IMG/VR virus record: IMGVR_UViG_3300036940_000262
DNA: 64,000 nucleotides
From: an uncultured virus (IMG/VR IMGVR_UViG_3300036940_000262)
Taxonomy: Duplodnaviria; Heunggongvirae; Uroviricota; Caudoviricetes
Direction: 5' to 3' (one strand)
A program made the position numbers and the translations under genes. Of the stretch, positions 5,427 through 41,746 are shown in pieces (positions within the stretch are counted from its first letter, which is position 1; the number at the start of each line of letters is the position of its first letter). Below the pieces are notes generated by a model. That model did not search any database, was not told where the DNA came from, and saw only the letters and a list, made by a program, of their open reading frames with translations.

Positions 5427-6110
5427 TTGATTATGGTGTATGAGAGTGAACTAAAAAAAGAATGGTATAGACCGGGTGAGATAGCAAAAATGTTGGGTGT
5501 TTCATCGAGAACTATTTTAAACTACAGAGAAAACGGTTTATTTGAGATGCGTTTAGATGAGTCGAACAATAGAAGATACGCTTCAAAAGAGGAGTTAATT
5601 AAACTGTTAAAATATAAAGGTGTTTTTTATTCTGATGTTGTAAATGATGGTAGAAAGGTAGCGATATATGCAAGAGTTAGTTCTTATGACCAGAAAAAGA
5701 ACGGTGACTTAGATAGGCAGATTATTAAACTTGAAAAACACATTAAAAACAGCGGTATTCACAATTATGAGCTGTTTTCAGATGTAGGTTCAGGGTTAAA
5801 CACAAAAAGAAGAGGTTTGAACAAATTATTAGATGAGGTTGTTGCATCTAAGATTTCTGTTGTTTATGTTACTTATTTAGATAGGTTGACAAGGTTTGGG
5901 TTAGAGTATTTAGATAAAATTTTTAAATACTTTGATACTAAGGTTATTTCTTTGGATGAGAGAGAGGAGAAAACTGAACAAGAGGAGTTAGTAGATGATA
6001 TGATAACTTTATTAGCCTCTTTTAGTGGTAAACTATATGGCATGAGAAGTCATAGCAAAGTTAAAGTAAAGAAAGCTTTTAAAGGGATTGAAGAAGAAAT
6101 GGGGGAGTGA
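5427..6110 (+). CDS. tnpA: IS607 family transposase (N-terminal HTH + serine recombinase)
   Basis: GEIAKMLGVSSRTI HTH; AIYARVSS..QK..DLDRQ; SDVGSGLN.KR.GL; DRLTRFG; EELVDD...FSGKLYGMRS. Confidence 0.93.
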   Translation: MIMVYESELKKEWYRPGEIAKMLGVSSRTILNYRENGLFEMRLDESNNRRYASKEELIKLLKYKGVFYSDVVNDGRKVAIYARVSSYDQKKNGDLDRQIIKLEKHIKNSGIHNYELFSDVGSGLNTKRRGLNKLLDEVVASKISVVYVTYLDRLTRFGLEYLDKIFKYFDTKVISLDEREEKTEQEELVDDMITLLASFSGKLYGMRSHSKVKVKKAFKGIEEEMGE

Positions 6111-7290
6111 TTTGAGTTTAGATAGTGCAGGATTTAAGATTTGTTTACATCCTAATAAAACACAAGAAAAACTGTTATGGGTGTATTCAAGTCATTCAAG
6201 AGGGTTATATAATCTTTTACTAGCAGAAGCTCAGAGAGCTTACAAAGAGGATAGTATTTCTATTAATTTTAATTATCTTTACAGTTATTATAAACAGTTA
6301 AAAGTTTCTGAGGATTATTCTTGGCTTGCAGAGTTACCTGAAGCCGCAGGAAAGCAGATTTGTAAAGACTTAGTAGAGAACTATAAAAGAGTTTTTAAAT
6401 CTAACTTCGGATTTCCTAAGTTTAAAAAGAAAGGATTGGTTACTCCATCTTTTTATCAAAGAACTGATACACTCTATTTTAAAGGTAACAATAGAGTAGC
6501 CTTAACAGGTGTAGGAGTTGTTAAAGTTACTAAAGGAGATTATTTACCTAAGAAAGAGTTTCAGAGTTTAAAAATATGTAATCCTCGCATTAAGTTTGAT
6601 GGAAAGTACTGGTATTTAAGTTACTCTATTCAATCTCGAAACGAAGAAGGGTTTTCTAAACCTTATACATCCGAAACAAAAGGAATTGGTATTGATTTAG
6701 GTATTAAAGAGTTTATAACAGTCAGTAATGGAACTGTGTTTAGTAATTATAATAAAACAGATAAAGAGTTGATAAGGTTAGATAAGAAGCTTAAAGACTT
6801 ACAGAGAACAAAAGCTTGGAAATTAGAATGTCGTAAGAAGTTTAATCAAAAAGAGATAAGTAATAATATATTAAAACTTAATCAAAAGATTAAACTTGTT
6901 TATAGACGTATTGGAAATATTAAAGATAACTATACTCATTTATACACTTCTACTCTGGTAAAAACCAAGCCTGAGTTTATAGCGGTAGAGAGTTTAGGTA
7001 TTAAAGAAATGAAAGAAGCAACTAATGATGTATCTAAAGAGATTCAAAAAGTAAAATGGTATGAGACTCTAAGACAACTTAATTACAAAAGTAATTATCA
7101 TGAAATACCTTATATTGAGATAGACAGATATTACCCGTCTACTAAGTTATGCAGTGGTTGTGGTAGCATACAAGAAATGTTATTAGAAGAAAGAGTTTAT
7201 AACTGTCCTGTTTGTGGTTTAAGTATTGATAGGGACTTTAATGCTTCTATAAACATAGAAAATAGAGGTAGAGAGCTGTTAACAGCTTAA
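6088..7290 (+). CDS. tnpB: RNA-guided endonuclease TnpB
   Basis: RuvC motifs GIDLG / IAVESL / DRDFNASINI intact; Zn ribbon CSGC...CPVC; GFPKFKKK. Confidence 0.92.
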   Translation: MKKKWGSDLSLDSAGFKICLHPNKTQEKLLWVYSSHSRGLYNLLLAEAQRAYKEDSISINFNYLYSYYKQLKVSEDYSWLAELPEAAGKQICKDLVENYKRVFKSNFGFPKFKKKGLVTPSFYQRTDTLYFKGNNRVALTGVGVVKVTKGDYLPKKEFQSLKICNPRIKFDGKYWYLSYSIQSRNEEGFSKPYTSETKGIGIDLGIKEFITVSNGTVFSNYNKTDKELIRLDKKLKDLQRTKAWKLECRKKFNQKEISNNILKLNQKIKLVYRRIGNIKDNYTHLYTSTLVKTKPEFIAVESLGIKEMKEATNDVSKEIQKVKWYETLRQLNYKSNYHEIPYIEIDRYYPSTKLCSGCGSIQEMLLEERVYNCPVCGLSIDRDFNASINIENRGRELLTA

Positions 7291-21822: not shown

Positions 21823-22539
21823 ATGATATATGTTGGTAGTAAAAGTAAATTAACTAAAGAACTATTACCTATAATCCTAAAAGATAGAAAAGAAGGGCAG
21901 TGGTATGTAGAACCTTTCGCAGGTGGCATGAATATGATCTCAGAGGTAAGTGGTAATCGTATAGCAAACGATTTACATACACCTTTAATTGAGATGTGGA
22001 AAGCTTTAATTGAGGGGTGGAGACCTGGAGGTGTTTACACAAGAGAGGAATATAATTACATAAAAGACAACAGAGAAGAGTTTCCTGAGCATGAGTTAGG
22101 CTGGGTAGGTTTTACTTGTTCTTTTAAAGGTATTTATATGGGAGGATTTGCGGACGAGTCTGTAACAAGAGATAAGGTAATAAGAAACTATCAGATAGAG
22201 TTGGCAAATAACATCCTAAACCATATACCAAAAATGAAGGATGTTGTTTTCTGCAACAAGTCTTATAATGAGTTGGAAATCCCGGAAGGTAGCATTATTT
22301 ATTGTGATCCACCTTATATAGGCACGAAGGAGTACGATGGAAGTTCCTTCAATCACGAGAAATTTTGGGACTGGGTTAGGTTTAAAGACAATGAAGGGCA
22401 TAACATTTTTGTAAGTGAGTACACAGCTCCAAAGGATTTTAGGATTGTTTGGGAAAAGGATTTAATCACCACCTTAAGTAATAGTTCGCAAAATAGAACA
22501 GAAAAACTATTTAAGTATGGTGAGTTTAGTTGGATGTAG
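21823..22539 (+). CDS. Orphan DNA adenine methyltransferase (D12/Dam-like), copy 1
   Basis: YVGSK; YVEPFAGG (motif I); IANDL; IIYCDPPY (motif IV); FVSEY. Confidence 0.88.
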   Translation: MIYVGSKSKLTKELLPIILKDRKEGQWYVEPFAGGMNMISEVSGNRIANDLHTPLIEMWKALIEGWRPGGVYTREEYNYIKDNREEFPEHELGWVGFTCSFKGIYMGGFADESVTRDKVIRNYQIELANNILNHIPKMKDVVFCNKSYNELEIPEGSIIYCDPPYIGTKEYDGSSFNHEKFWDWVRFKDNEGHNIFVSEYTAPKDFRIVWEKDLITTLSNSSQNRTEKLFKYGEFSWM

Positions 22540-22560
22540 TAGAGAAAGGGTAGATTTAGA

Positions 22561-23274
22561 ATGATATACATGGGTAGTAAGAGCAGGATAGTTGATGGTT
22601 TTCTTCCAACTGTTCTTAAAGACAGAAAAGAAGGACAGTTATATATTGAGCCATTCGGAGGTGGCATGAATGTTATCTGTAATGTTGATGGCAGAAGAAT
22701 TGCAAACGATATTCACACACCATTAATCGAAATGTGGAAGAAATTGGTAGATGGTTGGATTCCTAATCTATACAGTAAAGAGGAGTACGAGTATATCAAG
22801 CACCATAGACATGAGTACGAGGATTATGAACTGGGTTGGGTTGGTTTTGTCTGTGCTTACAGGGGTATGTACTTTTGTGGTTTTGCTGACGAAGTTAGGG
22901 TTAGTGAGAGCAGGCATGCAAATGGTCAACTTGCTATGAGAAAAAACATCTTAGCTCAAGTTGAGAAAATGAAGGGTGTTGAGTTCTTAAATAAACCATA
23001 TTATGAGTTAGAAATACCTGATAACAGTATAATTTACTGCGATCCACCTTATAAAGATACAGAGGAGTATGCTGTAAAAGGTTTTGACCACGACAGATTT
23101 TGGGAGTGGGTTAGGGTTAAAGATAACGAAGGTCATAGTGTATTTGTCAGCGAGTATCAAGCACCTGATGATTTTAGAAGTGTTTGGAACAAAGAGATAT
23201 TGATGTTAGCTGGCTCAAAAAAAGTAGTTAGACTAGAGCATCTATTCAAATACGGAAGATTTGAATGGGCTTAA
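22561..23274 (+). CDS. Orphan DNA adenine methyltransferase (D12/Dam-like), copy 2
   Basis: YMGSK; YIEPFGGG; IIYCDPPY; paralogue of the preceding gene. Confidence 0.88.
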   Translation: MIYMGSKSRIVDGFLPTVLKDRKEGQLYIEPFGGGMNVICNVDGRRIANDIHTPLIEMWKKLVDGWIPNLYSKEEYEYIKHHRHEYEDYELGWVGFVCAYRGMYFCGFADEVRVSESRHANGQLAMRKNILAQVEKMKGVEFLNKPYYELEIPDNSIIYCDPPYKDTEEYAVKGFDHDRFWEWVRVKDNEGHSVFVSEYQAPDDFRSVWNKEILMLAGSKKVVRLEHLFKYGRFEWA

Positions 23275-23291
23275 CAGAGAGAGGGTGCAAC

Positions 23292-23972
23292 ATGTTAGTA
23301 GTTATTGAAGGAGTGGATGGTTCAGGTAAAGAGACTCAATCTTTAGAATTACATAAAAGATTGAACCAAGAAGGGATACAATCTTTTAGTATCGGGTTTC
23401 CTAGATACAGCAGGGAATCTTCTACAATGGTAAAGAAGTATTTAAACGGGGATTTTGGTAAAGATGCTAAACAGGTAGATCCTTATATAGCATCGACATT
23501 TTATGCATCAGACAGGTATGCTTCTTATGTAGAGGAGTTTGGATTTGCTCTGGATAATGGCATGGTTGTGATAGCGGACAGATACACAACATCCAATATG
23601 GTGCATCAAGCCGGGAAGTTTGATTCAAAACAAGAAAAAGATAGATTTTTGGATTGGTTATGTGCTTACGAGTACGAGTTGTTAAAACTGCCTAAACCTG
23701 ATTTAGTTATCTTTTTAAATATGCCACTTAAAGACAGTTTAAAGTTGACAAGTAAAAGAAAATCAAAAGATGGTGTTAAAAACGACATCCATGAAAAAGA
23801 TAAACAACACTTAGAGGATGCTTATAGTAACTCATTATATGTCGCTGAAAAGTATGGCTGGGTTTCAGTAGACTGCATAAGAGACGGTTCTCTTAGAACA
23901 ATCGAGGATATAAACAATGAGATATTTAAGATTGTTAGTGATTTACTTAGAAAGAACAAATTAATTCAATAA
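23292..23972 (+). CDS. tmk: Thymidylate kinase
   Basis: VIEGVDGSGKETQ; FPRY; DRY.S; IADRYTTSN.VHQ; PKPDLVIFL; DIHE. Confidence 0.88.
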   Translation: MLVVIEGVDGSGKETQSLELHKRLNQEGIQSFSIGFPRYSRESSTMVKKYLNGDFGKDAKQVDPYIASTFYASDRYASYVEEFGFALDNGMVVIADRYTTSNMVHQAGKFDSKQEKDRFLDWLCAYEYELLKLPKPDLVIFLNMPLKDSLKLTSKRKSKDGVKNDIHEKDKQHLEDAYSNSLYVAEKYGWVSVDCIRDGSLRTIEDINNEIFKIVSDLLRKNKLIQ

Positions 23973-32066: not shown

Positions 32067-32753
32067 ATGGAATTTAATATTCATACAACAAAAGGTAAAC
32101 GAGAAGAAAATCAGGATACGTACTGGTGTGTAAAGCTAAACGTAGAGGGGTATGAGTTGTGTGTAGTTTGCGTATGTGATGGTATGGGTGGTTTAAACGA
32201 AGGTCGTTTAGCAAGTTCATTAGTTGCTAAAGCAGTCAGAGACTACTATACTGGTGGTAATTATGATTTTGAGGGGTTGCAAAGTGTCTTAGAGGATGTC
32301 AATAGAGAGATTTATATTAAGGGACTTAGTGTAGGTGCTATTGGAACTACTTGTACATTATTATCAACTTACAAAGGTCAGTACAAGATATTCCATACAG
32401 GTGACAGCAGATGTTATAAGGTGTCAAATCAAAATGTTGAGATACTGACTGAAGACCACTCAGCTCTTGCAAAATGTAGGCGAGAAGGCAAAGTATTAAC
32501 TCCTGAGAAAGAGAAGAAGTATAGAAATACTTTAACAAGAGCTTTAGGGGTATCTGGTGAGTTTAAAATAGACTACATTGATGGTGAATACAATCAAGAT
32601 GATCTGTTTTTAGTTTGTTCTGACGGTTTTTGGCATTATTTGCAGGATGATGATTTTAAGAGTGGTGAAATAAATAATCTCAAAAATTTAACTGGCAGAT
32701 TTATCGAATTGGGTGAGACAGATAACATAACAAGTATTGTATTGACAGTATAG
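32067..32753 (+). CDS. PP2C/PPM family Ser/Thr phosphatase
   Basis: GKREENQD; VCDGMGG; GTT; GDSRCY; LTEDHS; LTRALG; CSDG; DNIT. Confidence 0.93.
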   Translation: MEFNIHTTKGKREENQDTYWCVKLNVEGYELCVVCVCDGMGGLNEGRLASSLVAKAVRDYYTGGNYDFEGLQSVLEDVNREIYIKGLSVGAIGTTCTLLSTYKGQYKIFHTGDSRCYKVSNQNVEILTEDHSALAKCRREGKVLTPEKEKKYRNTLTRALGVSGEFKIDYIDGEYNQDDLFLVCSDGFWHYLQDDDFKSGEINNLKNLTGRFIELGETDNITSIVLTV

Positions 32754-32765
32754 AGAGGAAATAAG

Positions 32766-33011
32766 ATGAATACAAGAGGGTTTAAAAACGGTGATTTTGT
32801 AAAAGCGAGTGTTGCGTATGGTGGTAGTAAGAATTCAAGAACAGGGGTAGAGAAAAGTGGTATTGTTGAGAAATGTTTTCCATACTTTGCACTTGTTCAG
32901 TTTAACAAGTTTAAACAATGCTTTTTCTATAATGAATTATCAAGAGTAACACAATCGGAGTATAAAAAAAGTCATAATCAAAAGGTAGATTTTGTCTACT
33001 GTACAGATTGA
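32766..33011 (+). CDS. Small beta-barrel protein, weakly Veg-like
   Basis: EKSGIVEKCFPYFALVQF...FFYNEL pattern; resemblance only. Confidence 0.5.
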   Translation: MNTRGFKNGDFVKASVAYGGSKNSRTGVEKSGIVEKCFPYFALVQFNKFKQCFFYNELSRVTQSEYKKSHNQKVDFVYCTD

Positions 33012-33020
33012 GAGGTAGTT

Positions 33021-34148
33021 GTGCGTAGAGTTTTAGTAAAAGGTACAATTGTTTTAGAGAAGTACAAAATTATAGAAGTAGTAAACTCTGGAGGTATGTC
33101 AAACATCTATAAAGTTATTGACAATAAACTTGGTAAAGAGTGGTGCTTAAAGGAAATTATTAAGTCTAGAACTGCTGAAAGTGAATTAGAGTATCGCAGT
33201 TTAATTCAAGAAGCAAACATTATGAGATACTTAGATCATCCTAGCATACCAAGGATTGTCACAATAGAGGATACAGGTTCTTCTATATTTATTATAATGG
33301 ACTTCGTAAAAGGGTTGGATATAAGGAAAACAGTTGAAAAAGATGGTAAATTTTCTTTTGAAAGAACTGTTGATGTTTCTAAGCAAATATGTGATGTTTT
33401 AATTTATTTACATAGTTTAGAAAATCCTATCTTTTACAGAGATATGAAACCTTCTAATGTGGTATTGCAGGAGGATGGTAAGGTAAGGGTATTGGATTTT
33501 GGAATTAGCTTAGTTCTGAGAGGTGGGGATAAAATTGAAGAACCCCTAGGGACAAGAGGGTATGCTCCACCAGAACAAGCTAAAAAAGGCAGTAATTGCG
33601 ACTTAAGGAGTGATATCTATTCATTTGGTATGACAATGTACTATATGTTGACTGGCATAAATCCAAAAACAACAAAAGAAAAACTAAAACCAATAAGTTT
33701 AGCTTCAAACGAGTTTAATAATGACTTAGACAGTATTGTGTATAAGTGTATAGATGTAGATCCAGATAATCGGTATCAAACTGCACATGAACTTAAAGAG
33801 GCTTTATTAAAGTGCAAAAAAGAAGAACCTGAGGCAAGCAAAAAAAGTACTCCTAAAATAGTAGCAACGGTAGTATGTGCTGTAGCAGGGGTTTTAGGGG
33901 TAATACTTTCTTTAAAAACATTATTTGCTTTAATCTTGGCAGTTGGGGGGTTTGTGGCAATACCTTTAATTTGGTTAAAAGGCAAGAAACAAGTAAAATC
34001 TATAAAGAGAGAGAAGTTTGTAAAAAGCAGACCTACCAAAGAAATAGATTTACTTGACTTAATACCAGACAACGTTGTCAAAGAGGTGGAGGACAAGCCA
34101 TTAAAAAATATCTATATTGTTGAAGAATACACTAATCTATTTGATTAA
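33021..34148 (+). CDS. Membrane-anchored Hanks-type Ser/Thr protein kinase
   Basis: GGMS.IY; CLKE; YRDMKPSN; DFG; GTRGYAPPE; SDIYSFG; two C-terminal TM helices. Confidence 0.93.
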   Translation: MRRVLVKGTIVLEKYKIIEVVNSGGMSNIYKVIDNKLGKEWCLKEIIKSRTAESELEYRSLIQEANIMRYLDHPSIPRIVTIEDTGSSIFIIMDFVKGLDIRKTVEKDGKFSFERTVDVSKQICDVLIYLHSLENPIFYRDMKPSNVVLQEDGKVRVLDFGISLVLRGGDKIEEPLGTRGYAPPEQAKKGSNCDLRSDIYSFGMTMYYMLTGINPKTTKEKLKPISLASNEFNNDLDSIVYKCIDVDPDNRYQTAHELKEALLKCKKEEPEASKKSTPKIVATVVCAVAGVLGVILSLKTLFALILAVGGFVAIPLIWLKGKKQVKSIKREKFVKSRPTKEIDLLDLIPDNVVKEVEDKPLKNIYIVEEYTNLFD

Positions 34149-34170
34149 GATAACAGCATTTCAGTAATTC

Positions 34171-34207
34171 AAACTGGGGTGCTGTTTTTTATTATATGTG
34201 GTATAAT
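34171..34207 (+). promoter_or_regulatory. Element-specific promoter, variant box
   Basis: AAACTGGGGT(34171-34180), 21 nt, TATAAT(34202-34207). Confidence 0.65.
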
Positions 34208-34243
34208 AATCATCAGTCAAAAAAGGGAGGAGTGGGTTAAATT

Positions 34244-35227
34244 ATGAGTGAAAAGAAAACACCTGCAGATATTATTATTGAGAGATTTTTAAAGGATGTA
34301 GAAGCAACAGGAACATTGCCTTGGCAGAACCCAGACAAGATGTTTCAAGCTTTTAACTATTTTACTTTACGTCCTTATAGTGGGTTTAATAAGATAATCC
34401 TACCCTCTGGCGAGTATATGACAAAGAAGCAGATAGATGAGTACAACAAAAAGAACGAAACACACTATCTCTTTCAAAAAGGAATCAAGTGGTATACAAT
34501 CAGTTACAAGTCTGAAAAGAAGTATAAAATTTCTTTAAGCGATGTACAAAAACTCTTTCCTAATGTTTCTCAGACAACTTCTGCAGGACGTATTGGGTAT
34601 GAGTATCCATATTCCTATCATAAGTTGCTAGACGGAACATTTGAAAAGCGTAGAAGTATTTTATTGTATTCACAAGTAGCTGAAAGACAGCACTTTAAAA
34701 ATGAGCATGGTGAGATGTTGCCATCTCGGTATGATACAGGAGATATTAGATTTATAACGAGTGATGCGAATACTTTTATTAAAGACTACACCACTAGGGA
34801 AAAGATAAAAGTAAAGAAAAGTGAAGATGGGATTTATGAGTACGATGTTACAATGGATAAGATTGAGACAGCTACTCTTAATCCTAAAAACATTGACGAA
34901 TTTTGTAATATCTTTAGAGAGTTATCTCGTTCGACAGGTCATAGTAAAAGATTAGATAGAGAAGGGGTAACAAACTTAAATTTAGGTTTTGGTTCAGATG
35001 AGTATGCGATAGAGGAGTGTATTGAGGAGATAGCAACATCATTAATGTGTAATGAGTGTGGTTTAACTTCTTTCTCAGAAAGGTATACAGAGCAGTATAA
35101 GAACAGTGTCGAGTACATTAGAATATGGAAAAGCCGGATGCAGAACTGGGGTTCATCATTTATTTACATCGCTTCAAAAGCAGATGAATCTTTTAACAGA
35201 GTGTTAAGTGGTGGTTCAGATGAGTAA
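34244..35227 (+). CDS. ArdC-like ssDNA-binding antirestriction protein with degenerate zincin domain
   Basis: GTLPWQ.P...N..T.RPYSG.N...YMT.KQ (ArdC N); RELSRSTGHSKRLDR...FGSDEYA.EE...E (MPTase-like, HExxH lost). Confidence 0.8.
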   Translation: MSEKKTPADIIIERFLKDVEATGTLPWQNPDKMFQAFNYFTLRPYSGFNKIILPSGEYMTKKQIDEYNKKNETHYLFQKGIKWYTISYKSEKKYKISLSDVQKLFPNVSQTTSAGRIGYEYPYSYHKLLDGTFEKRRSILLYSQVAERQHFKNEHGEMLPSRYDTGDIRFITSDANTFIKDYTTREKIKVKKSEDGIYEYDVTMDKIETATLNPKNIDEFCNIFRELSRSTGHSKRLDREGVTNLNLGFGSDEYAIEECIEEIATSLMCNECGLTSFSERYTEQYKNSVEYIRIWKSRMQNWGSSFIYIASKADESFNRVLSGGSDE

Positions 35228-36875
35228 TGAATACACAATGATGGATAAAGCAACATTAGAAATCTTTGTAAAAGCAATTAATCCTTTAAGAGAGGCTATA
35301 GGCATATATTATAAAGATAACACAACTCAATTAAATAATGCTGTATTTAATTTTTATGAGAATCAGGGGTATATGGTGCTTGAAAACGCTACATCAGGCA
35401 ATTTTTTATTAAAAGTAAATCATCAGGACGAGTCAATGTTAGATTATCTAGGTTTTCAAGGGAGCTTTAAACCTGAGTATCTAAGGGGTAAAGTATTTAC
35501 AACGTTAAAAAAGCTTGTAGATACTTCACCTGTACCTATCAAACAGATTTCTTTTGAGGTCGGGGAGTTAATTAAGAGTGGGGGTATGAGACCTTCTCTT
35601 ATTGAGGCAGGGAGTTTTGAGATAGGGTTATTCAAAAATCCTCAAAAAAGTCGCAAGAGTAGTCCTAAAATTAAAGAAAAAGAGAAAGCGGTATCTGAGG
35701 GCACTTTAGATAAAAAACCTGTTAAAAAGGCTGTGAGAGCCAAAAAAGCGGAGGTTGAAAAAATTGACCGTTATCTGACAATGGTTGATGCAGGGGAGAA
35801 TAATTACAAGTATTACAGTATTAAAGTAAATGGTGATACGTTTGAAGCCACTTGGGGTAGAATGGGTGTAACTGGTAGAGTTATGGCAGGAAACAAAGTC
35901 TATCCAATAAAAGATTATTCAAAGAAGTATAATGAAAAGATAGCGAAGGGGTATAAAGACAGAACTGAAATTCTAACAAGTAGTGGTTCAGACGAGTCTA
36001 CAAGTGCATCAAAAGAAGCAACAATGCTGTATAATTTTCTTCTTAAATACTCAAAAGAGAGAGTTCACAGTACTTTAGTATCAGATAATCTTACTAAAGG
36101 CATGGTAGAACACTCAAGAAAGTTGTTAAATGATTTGTACAACTCCAACGATATACGGTCTTTCAACAATGTATTGTTAGAGTTGATGGCAATCTGTCCT
36201 CGTAAAGTAGATAAGGTAGAATCCCAACTAGCAAAGAGTAGACGAGATATTCCTTTTATTTTTGACAGAGAAGAAGACCTGCAAAAAGCTATGGAAGGGG
36301 TAGTCGGCAACGGTGGAGGAACATTAGATGCAGATGTATTAATGGCAACTGATGAACAAAGAGAGCAGGTACTTGATAAACTTTCTGATAAATTGAAGCC
36401 TAAAGTTGTAGATGTTTACAGGGTTAAACCAAACAGACAGCAAGTCAAGTTTGATAACTATATTAAACAAAGAAATATTACTAAAATCAAGCAGTTGTGG
36501 CATGGTAGTAGAAATGAGAACTGGATTTCTATAATTAGAAACAGTTTAAGTTTAAGTCCCAATGCTCAAATAACAGGTAAGATGTTTGGTAATGGTATTT
36601 ATTTTGCCCCATCAAGTATGAAATCATGGGGGTACACCTCTGGTGATGGTGCTTATTGGACAGGTGGGGGTAGTAAAGATGCTGTAATGGGTTTATATGC
36701 AACAGCTTATGGTGAACCTCACATCACTGAAAGAGCAGGTAAATTTACAGAGGACACTATTTATGGTAAAGATTGTGTTCATGCAAAAGCAGGTTCACAA
36801 CTCAGAAATGATGAGATAATCTATTATAATGAAGCGGCAATGGTGTTGAATTATATTGTAACGTTTAAGTGTTAG
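35220..36875 (+). CDS. WGR-domain poly(ADP-ribose) polymerase (PARP-like ADP-ribosyltransferase)
   Basis: NNYKYY...ATWGRMG...KYNEKIAKGYKD (WGR); helical region; LWHGS, GKMFGNGIYFA, KSWGY, LRNDEIIYY give the H-Y-E triad. Confidence 0.9.
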   Translation: MSNEYTMMDKATLEIFVKAINPLREAIGIYYKDNTTQLNNAVFNFYENQGYMVLENATSGNFLLKVNHQDESMLDYLGFQGSFKPEYLRGKVFTTLKKLVDTSPVPIKQISFEVGELIKSGGMRPSLIEAGSFEIGLFKNPQKSRKSSPKIKEKEKAVSEGTLDKKPVKKAVRAKKAEVEKIDRYLTMVDAGENNYKYYSIKVNGDTFEATWGRMGVTGRVMAGNKVYPIKDYSKKYNEKIAKGYKDRTEILTSSGSDESTSASKEATMLYNFLLKYSKERVHSTLVSDNLTKGMVEHSRKLLNDLYNSNDIRSFNNVLLELMAICPRKVDKVESQLAKSRRDIPFIFDREEDLQKAMEGVVGNGGGTLDADVLMATDEQREQVLDKLSDKLKPKVVDVYRVKPNRQQVKFDNYIKQRNITKIKQLWHGSRNENWISIIRNSLSLSPNAQITGKMFGNGIYFAPSSMKSWGYTSGDGAYWTGGGSKDAVMGLYATAYGEPHITERAGKFTEDTIYGKDCVHAKAGSQLRNDEIIYYNEAAMVLNYIVTFKC

Positions 36876-36907: not shown

Positions 36908-37036
36908 ATGGAAGTTCCGAATGTAGAGTGCGTGGGTTTTGGTTGTGAGTGCGATATTCAAACAGAAATGAAGTATTTCATCGACTGCGAAGAAGAACAG
37001 GAACAAACGGAAAAAGAAACAATCTTAACTACATAG
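36908..37036 (+). CDS. Small Cys-containing acidic peptide (42 aa; not in the ORF track)
   Basis: AAGGAG RBS; MEVPNVECVGFGCECDIQTEMKYFIDCEEEQEQTEKETILTT*; hairpin 37018-37047 follows. Confidence 0.5.
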   Translation: MEVPNVECVGFGCECDIQTEMKYFIDCEEEQEQTEKETILTT

Positions 37037-37065
37037 TTAAGATTGTTTTTATTTTAAAAAGTCTT

Positions 37066-37102
37066 GAACTAGGTAAAAAAGGCAGTCTAATTGTAGTATA
37101 AT
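37066..37102 (+). promoter_or_regulatory. Element-specific promoter (box-N21-TATAAT)
   Basis: GAACTAGGTA(37066-37075), 21 nt, TATAAT(37097-37102). Confidence 0.75.
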
Positions 37103-41146: not shown

Positions 41147-41746
41147 ATGAGATATTTTATAAGTGATTTGCACTTCAATCATGAAGTGGCCTTAATAAAC
41201 TATAAAAGACCATTCAGCTCAGTAGAGGAGATGAATGAGTCAATAATAGATAACTGGAATAATGCAGTAGGAAACAAAGATACAGTATATCTTTTGGGTG
41301 ATGTAGCCTTTGGTAGTGGAAAAACTATTTCTGATTTAGTGTCAAGACTAAACGGCAGAAAACACCTAATAGCAGGTAATTGGGACAGTAAATTTTTATT
41401 TAGCAGAGGGTTTGACAATCGAGTATTCAAATCAATAACCTCTTACAACACGAGAAGTCATACAATAGAGGGGTACGAAGGAAGATTGATTTTAAGTCAC
41501 TACCCTTTTGCCGATTGGGATTCTTCACATAAAGGTACAATCCATCTTCATGGACATATTCATAACAGAGTCCCTAGTTTTCAGTTATTGGGAGATGCTT
41601 CTAAACGATTTATGTTCAATGTATCTTTAGAGGTAATGGATTATAGACCACAAACCTTAGAAGAGATTATGAATGGACGACTTGAGGAGTGGGTAGACTT
41701 TATAAAGTCTGGTAAGAGATTAAACGGTTTAGAGGGTTTAATATAA
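41147..41746 (+). CDS. Calcineurin-like metallophosphoesterase
   Basis: SDLHFNH; LLGD; AGNWD; LSHYP; HLHGHIH; FNVS. Confidence 0.9.
   Translation: MRYFISDLHFNHEVALINYKRPFSSVEEMNESIIDNWNNAVGNKDTVYLLGDVAFGSGKTISDLVSRLNGRKHLIAGNWDSKFLFSRGFDNRVFKSITSYNTRSHTIEGYEGRLILSHYPFADWDSSHKGTIHLHGHIHNRVPSFQLLGDASKRFMFNVSLEVMDYRPQTLEEIMNGRLEEWVDFIKSGKRLNGLEGLI

Follow-up and report, generated by a model that had tools for sequence, protein, structure and literature searches.

A 64,000-nucleotide stretch of DNA from an uncultured virus record (IMG/VR IMGVR_UViG_3300036940_000262), called the window here, carries a gene for an ArdC-like protein whose end overlaps the start of a gene for a PARP with a WGR domain. 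The reading that we favour, and consider moderately probable, takes the PARP for a DNA-activated ADP-ribosyltransferase that travels as accessory cargo among the conflict genes of an element resembling a conjugative megaplasmid and is co-expressed with an ArdC-like protein predicted to be protease-dead. The two genes are placed as follows.

34244..35227, plus strand, ArdC-like gene, 327 amino acids
35220..36875, plus strand, PARP gene, 551 amino acids, reading frame open from 35208

The original prediction, made from the letters alone, had described the second gene as a PARP with WGR, helical and catalytic regions and an H-Y-E triad, and this was confirmed by Pfam, by alignments and by structural comparison. 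The PARP catalytic family (PF00644) matched with an E-value of 4.2e-17 (62.8 bits, cut-off 26.7) and the WGR family (PF05406) with 9.6e-10 (38.9 bits, cut-off 22), and PHROG 23333 covered residues 185-550 (E 4.1e-39). H428, Y461 and E532 were invariant among 17 and, separately, among 130 aligned sequences, and the HGS and GIYFA motifs align to PARP2. A single-sequence AlphaFold2 (AF2) fold had a predicted local distance difference test score (pLDDT) of 35.4 and was unusable; it was replaced by a fold from the 130-sequence alignment, in which the pLDDT is above 90 over residues 181-551. The best Foldseek match of this model was the PARP1 WGR-CAT chain 4opx_C (E 2.3e-18, 465 columns). The top matches were chains of PARP1 and PARP2 bound to DNA breaks, comprising the WGR, helical (HD) and ADP-ribosyltransferase (ART) domains and aligned over 455-471 columns, and the catalytic domains of PARP1/2/3/4 matched at E <= 1e-13. 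No match to Pfam PARP_reg was found in the protein; the predicted structure nevertheless indicates a helical domain between WGR and ART, missed by Pfam. The domains of the PARP are given below.

35220..35654, plus strand, orphan N-terminal domain (residues 1-145), predicted alpha/beta, low pLDDT
35655..35765, plus strand, Lys-rich linker (residues 146-182), pLDDT under 60
35766..35966, plus strand, WGR domain (residues 183-249) with W212-G213-R214
36003..36305, plus strand, helical, regulatory-type domain (residues 262-362), modelled helices 265-362
36333..36872, plus strand, ART catalytic domain (residues 372-551) with H428, Y461 and E532

The description of this PARP as eukaryote-like turned out to be overstated, as the relatives of its core, more than 1,300 database proteins at E <= 0.001, come from bacterial genomes, metagenomes and mobile elements. 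Identities reach 41-50% in the best of them, and the matches are mostly confined to residues ~184-551. At the WGR motif, the window protein has W-G-R where most close relatives have Y-G-R. The unrecognised N-terminal domain and Lys-rich linker that had been described earlier were found again: an HMMER scan of 1.84 billion representatives gave no real relative for residues 1-175, and an NCBIfam scan gave nothing useful. Besides the protein itself, the N-domain matched only a Calx-beta protein and a tetratricopeptide (TPR) repeat protein, at E ~1e-4 summed over repeats, which we judged spurious. It was rejected as a Macro domain (hhalign probability 0.2%) and as a relative of the ~80-residue N-terminal extension found in a clade of 470-residue PARPs, the closest clade (0.4%); that extension is also not Macro-like (0.5%). 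Fold neighbours of the N-domain in the Atlas, including nuclease-fold clusters (RecB-like, Cas4, PDDEXK_1), reached template modelling (TM) scores of 0.42-0.48 and, since all of these are below 0.5, are leads only.

WGR-PARPs have already been published for Clostridia and a few phages, as excerpts from PMC5966428, PMC4245714 and PMC7824862 indicate. In passages of the first two, HaPARP from Herpetosiphon aurantiacus and CdPARP from C. difficile CD160 are described as automodifying with activated DNA, and PMC5966428 distinguishes, in the part concerned, a bacterial WGR-PARP group 'Clade 1.2 Clostridiales'. The window PARP resembles these two enzymes in its WGR, helical and ART layout and in its H-Y-E triad, with a helical domain that is modelled and not matched by PARP_reg. 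In contrast to them, it has an extra orphan N-domain of 145 residues and a Lys-rich linker, and its gene follows an ArdC-like gene on a large mobile element.

The identification of the first gene as ArdC-like also held. Its product matched Pfam MPTase-PolyVal (PF18818) above the cut-off (E 1.2e-7, 32.3 bits against 27.5) and PHROG 7245, annotated 'anti-restriction protein', over residues 4-313 (E 5.8e-19). The ArdcN family (PF08401), carried by 41 of 62 relatives, scored under its cut-off (E 0.0019, 18.8 bits against 22.6). Plasmid genes annotated as ArdC or zincin-like show ~25% identity over 89-97% of the protein. Its subfamily comprises 62 clusters with 30-45% identity, often from contigs of 120-270 kb, and ArdC-like peptidases have been published for jumbo phages, according to sections of PMC7824862.

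The window protein shares with the ArdC of plasmid R388 (6i89, 6sna) a probable two-domain layout, the TGHxxRLxR and YAxEE motifs, E226, E257 and E258, and a plasmid-like carrier, whereas the overall similarity is low (phmmer E 0.42) and the metal site is lost. The HExxH motif is replaced by R225-E-L-S-R229, which aligns with H201-E-A-T-H205 of R388 ArdC (6i89), so that both histidines have become arginines. Among the relatives, H-E-H is kept in 133 of 133 (62 subfamily clusters and 71 relatives on viral contigs). Since both zinc-binding histidines are lost, the protein is predicted to lack the catalytic metal and to be unable to cleave proteins; the C-terminal domain would thus be protease-dead. 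In excerpts from PMC7213743, the metal ligands of R388 ArdC are given as H201, H205 and E229, and an E229A mutant is described as still promoting transfer into P. putida.

The stop codon of the ArdC-like gene overlaps the start of the PARP gene, as had been predicted. The PARP start ATG (35220-35222) lies inside ATGAGTAA, and the ArdC-like stop TAA (35225-35227) is part of the same ATGAGTAA, which makes an overlap of 8 nucleotides; GGTGG is found 5 nucleotides upstream of the PARP ATG. Translational coupling of the two genes is plausible from this arrangement. Contigs of another study match both genes at >=99% identity, and two of them (X4 record 3 and X5 record 8) bridge the gene junction with 0 differences. 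Because these come from a separate study, the junction did not arise as an error of a single assembly. Base differences in those contigs, over a 3-kb stretch, fall mostly at 35717-35867, within the linker of the PARP and the beginning of its WGR domain, and none is listed within the ArdC-like gene; as contig depth is low, some of the differences at 35717-35867 may be errors.

The window has a G+C content of 35.6%, and nearly all of its long open reading frames (ORFs) are on the plus strand. The operon spans ~2.9 kb and holds two genes that are sure and a small one that is doubtful; it is bordered by the following signals.

34152..34186, plus strand, terminator-like hairpin and T-run, 14 pairs, tail TTTTATTATA
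34172..34207, plus strand, predicted promoter, AACTGGG-N23-TATAAT, extended -10 (TGG before the hexamer)
34225..34232, plus strand, Shine-Dalgarno-like GGGAGGAG, 11 nucleotides upstream of the ArdC-like ATG
36908..37036, plus strand, putative ORF of 42 codons, acidic, four Cys, own GAAGGAG upstream
37017..37048, plus strand, hairpin followed by a T-rich tract; palindromic stem (detected on the minus strand), TTATTTT follows on the plus strand
37067..37102, plus strand, next predicted promoter of the same class, AACTAGG-N23-TATAAT, opening the following unit

The first hairpin lies directly 3' of a Ser/Thr kinase gene (stop at 34148) and overlaps the promoter site. The second likely marks the end of the operon. 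For the 42-codon ORF, no relatives were found in a PHROG scan or by comparison with the surveyed loci.

The 'regulon promoter' that had been proposed upstream of the ArdC-like gene is real as a pattern. AAC[AT][AG]GG-N23-TA[TC]A[AC]T occurs at 12 sites on the plus strand of the window (1678, 7590, 8191, 21474, 23975, 34172, 37067, 37837, 38596, 39752, 43434 and 47942) and at 0 on the minus strand, where a first-order Markov simulation expects 0.075 on average over the two strands combined, a contrast that is inflated, since the pattern was written after inspecting the intergenic regions, though it is still large. At 7 of the 11 other sites the box is followed by TAA, which is missing at 34172-34207; at 10 of the 11 a T plus two A/T stand there. 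The pattern suggests an element-specific regulator or sigma factor.

The element to which the window belongs is at least 181,661 bp long. Its colinear relative G001 is an IMG/VR record of 179,785 bp with terminal repeats, 100% CheckV completeness and the same G+C content. Sixteen window ORFs between 32 and 62 kb are colinear with G001 at 21-49% identity, and the shared genes include those for the PP2C phosphatase, the kinase, the ArdC-like protein, a 5'-3' exonuclease and a clamp loader. In G001, the ArdC-like gene is found at the same relative place, and the promoter pattern occurs once on the plus strand in 180 kb, directly before this gene and next to a hairpin. No PARP match was found in G001. 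Since G001 keeps the ArdC-like gene without a PARP, the PARP is best seen as an insertion in the lineage of the window.

Further genes of G001 are those for ParM-like and ParB partition proteins, an FtsK/SpoIIIE ATPase, a CHAP hydrolase, antigen I/II-type LPXTG adhesins and a complete replisome. Searches with PHROGs (68 ORFs) and Pfam (51 ORFs) revealed no capsid, portal, tail or terminase family there, nor Terminase_6N, and no relaxase or VirB4 was identified. By this gene content, G001, although recorded as a virus, is probably a circular megaplasmid, and the element of the window looks like a conjugative megaplasmid. Comparison of the window DNA with phages gave no match, and comparison with plasmids gave one match of 121 nucleotides, to pCY360; a search of the region from 40 to 64 kb against plasmids in 'near' mode gave none.

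Other genes of the window include toxin-antitoxin pairs, an M23 peptidase, ChW surface proteins and a zinc ABC transporter. Directly before the operon, at 32067-34148, lie a PP2C phosphatase gene, an ORF of 81 codons and the gene of a membrane-anchored Ser/Thr kinase. The phosphatase and kinase pair is kept in G001 at 41-42% identity, and the kinase, which ends at 34148, matches PD-T4-6 defence-kinase models (E 5.2e-55, PADLOC-DB 2.0.0). Two Dam-type (D12) adenine methylase genes stand in tandem at 21823-23972, with a gene for thymidylate kinase behind them; no restriction partner of the methylases came to light, an arrangement that fits an anti-restriction or establishment region. At 5427-7290, a serine resolvase gene with a MerR-type helix-turn-helix overlaps a TnpB/Cas12f-like (OrfB_IS605) gene, and by these two genes the segment is an IS607-like insertion. 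A calcineurin-like metallophosphoesterase (PHROG 547, E 3.4e-47; PDB 1xm7, E 3.8e-7) is encoded at 41147-41746, and relatives of it are found within the PARP flanks at three other loci (L002, L043 and L149). A role of this enzyme in ADP-ribose turnover is only a guess.

The neighbours of related PARPs are of a different kind. At 72 loci, clustering revealed a Macro gene of ~145 codons directly 5' of the PARP gene, usually 9-13 nucleotides away. According to hidden Markov models (HMMs), a Macro gene adjoins 75 of 99 PARPs of up to 440 residues and 0 of 29 longer ones. An NAD-dependent DNA ligase gene is found within three genes of the PARP at 21 loci, a UvrD-type helicase gene adjoins it at 4 loci including pCY360, and at least one of the Macro-PARP contigs carries a terminase. 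The PARPs of these pairs (PHROG 23333) have the same core as the window PARP, are 33-38% identical to it and are likewise carried on mobile elements. They differ in being ~404 residues long with Macro upstream, where the window has the ArdC-like gene. The original prediction had noted the lack of a PARG or macrodomain eraser, and none was detected in the 64 kb of the element (>=181,661 bp) that the eraser searches span: Pfam scans of the 71 window ORFs gave no Macro or PARG family, and the best match of the Macro HMM to the six-frame translation had an E-value of 0.83.

The PARP of pCY360 (WP_013282825.1), a megaplasmid of Butyrivibrio proteoclasticus (Clostridia), is a WGR-PARP that is 33% identical to the window protein over residues 184-549. 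Its gene differs from that of the window in that a UvrD-type helicase gene follows it and no ArdC-like ORF is found within its 9-kb flanks. Among the other surveyed loci, large viral or mobile contigs carried the pair of Macro and a WGR-PARP of ~404 residues at L018, L020, L022, L024-L027 and most of L121-L199. Two PARP-like ORFs at positions 5058-8029 of L005 (313 residues with WGR, 143 residues with the C-terminal ART part) lie directly upstream of an intact PARP gene of 502 codons and resemble a split tandem copy that appears broken. A single contig of Clostridium porci (L014 and L017) carries two different PARP genes ~13 kb apart, one following a UvrD helicase gene and the other a DUF2130 gene.

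The original prediction had proposed that the two genes form a module that senses single-stranded DNA (ssDNA) or DNA ends and ADP-ribosylates targets. Of this, the gene identities, the overlap and the domains were substantiated, whereas conservation of the pair, whose absence from related elements the prediction had itself named as a refuting outcome, was not. HMMs of both families were run over all ORFs of the surveyed genome and viral loci. No ArdC-like ORF was found in the flanks of PARP genes (0 of 47 genome loci and 0 of 80 viral loci, 127 together), and no PARP beside ArdC-like genes (0 of 71 viral loci and 0 of 80 metagenome loci, 151 together), where the upstream flank was at least 1.1 kb in 119 of the 127 PARP loci and the downstream flank at least 1.7 kb in 107 of the 151 ArdC-like loci. 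Nor was there a PARP match anywhere in five large records with an ArdC-like gene, G001 to G005. As none of the related elements surveyed showed the pair, it is probably a local insertion and not a conserved two-gene system. Literature searches gave, among the papers listed, no ArdC-PARP link and, for leading regions and anti-defence, no ArdC-ART link; the jumbo-phage review PMC7824862 covers ArdC-like peptidases and PARPs separately in the sections concerned.

The favoured reading would work as follows, where gene order, gene overlap, domains, catalytic residues and the lack of co-conservation are what the data show, and the enzyme activity of the PARP, its activation by DNA, its timing and its targets are what we infer. 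A short operon in an accessory region of conflict genes would run from the promoter at 34172-34207 to the hairpin at 37017-37048. Its first gene encodes the conserved ArdC-like protein of the element, with a putative N-domain of the ssDNA-binding type and a zincin-like C-domain that is predicted to be protease-dead. The second encodes a WGR-helical-ART PARP with an intact H-Y-E triad, which the lineage of the window would have acquired. Its insertion directly behind the ArdC-like gene would entail co-transcription and probably translational coupling. By analogy with the Herpetosiphon and C. difficile enzymes, the WGR domain would bind DNA breaks or gaps, and this binding would lift the block by the helical domain, so that NAD+ would be used to ADP-ribosylate the PARP itself and targets close to it. 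Which target or DNA is preferred would presumably depend on the orphan N-domain and the basic linker.

Several observations weigh against this reading. For either gene, the closest relatives, at 44-50% identity and from Logan/ENA contigs, are known as proteins only and lie outside the survey, and the H-Y-E triad alone cannot separate poly- from mono-ADP-ribosylation. The window ArdC-like protein is the sole R-E-R copy (1 of 134) and also the sole PARP-linked copy, which hints at co-adaptation. Structure prediction of the ArdC-like/PARP complex, which had been proposed as a check, passed the mark weakly and reported no interface: the score was 0.52 (runs 0.52, 0.53 and 0.45) against 0.00 for the best control, the partner pLDDT did not fall below 77 and the runs had at least 62% of their contacts in common, and passes of up to 0.60 are mostly wrong with this tool unless the guess was likely beforehand. 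Of 157 solved complexes, 116 reach the mark, as do 2 of 215 mismatches, and scores of up to 0.60 comprise just 18 of the 157 solved complexes plus both passing mismatches. The last two points bear on a two-protein machine, which corresponds to the module of the original prediction and in which the protease-dead ArdC-like protein would be an ssDNA-targeting or regulatory subunit, perhaps on the orphan N-domain, that aims ADP-ribosylation at incoming or replicating DNA of the element and at host factors on it. We consider such a machine unlikely. The single operon with its 8-nucleotide overlap, the loss of the zinc ligands in the window copy alone, an orphan N-domain without another known role and the weak complex score all speak for it, but the pair is absent from the 127 PARP and 151 ArdC-like loci, the complex tool reported no interface and the N-domain is modelled at low confidence. 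It is also quite unlikely, in our estimation, that the ArdC-like protein gave up proteolysis after the PARP had landed and now docks on the orphan N-domain, the two making up a complex of recent origin whose ADP-ribosylation would strike proteins or DNA where the DNA of the element is single-stranded, during entry or replication. If true, the pair would serve establishment or anti-defence by way of ADP-ribosylation, a kind of device not described for plasmids.

The remaining alternatives leave the ArdC-like protein aside. PARPs consume NAD+, and the gene could serve the defence of the element or the host, with the PARP sensing phage DNA ends and draining NAD+ or modifying phage proteins in an abortive infection, the position of the ArdC-like gene being incidental. 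The match of the neighbouring kinase to PD-T4-6 models, a HipA-like kinase that weakly matches the candidate model PDC-M03A (E 1.6e-8) and the toxin-antitoxin pairs of the window are in line with this. Against it, PADLOC-DB 2.0.0 gave 0 families for the PARP and the ArdC-like protein at E <= 0.001, and the relatives occur mainly on viral or mobile contigs beside Macro, often with NAD-dependent ligase; such neighbours, at least once with a terminase on the contig, suit use by the element itself better than host immunity. We give a defence function little credence, and about as little the view that the PARP is a helper in DNA repair or replication, signalling breaks for the replisome of the element like the eukaryotic PARP1-3 and having no conflict role. 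The ligase and UvrD helicase genes near related PARPs would agree with such a helper, as would the 5'-3' exonuclease and clamp loader genes 8-20 kb downstream in the window, but the immediate neighbours in the window are of the conflict type, and no ligase or eraser is nearby. Moreover, the absence of the PARP from the colinear G001 means that the shared replisome does not need it.

Overall, what our data add, under the favoured reading of an accessory ADP-ribosyltransferase, is a member of the PARP family with an orphan N-domain together with a predicted protease-dead ArdC-like protein, and this is no new kind of system. Few bacterial PARPs have been shown to be active, and the role of PARPs in bacteria and mobile elements is unsettled in the field. 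The case of the window indicates that a plasmid-like element can take up a PARP among its conflict genes without the usual Macro partner, and an ArdC-like protein that is predicted to be protease-dead by nature offers a test case for the role of the ArdC protease domain. The pairing of Macro and PARP, seen with most of the short PARPs and often with an NAD-dependent ligase nearby, gives a lead that is wider in scope and easier to test than the pair of ArdC-like protein and PARP. If the weak complex signal is real, the latter would connect the binding of ssDNA with ADP-ribosylation in horizontal gene transfer.

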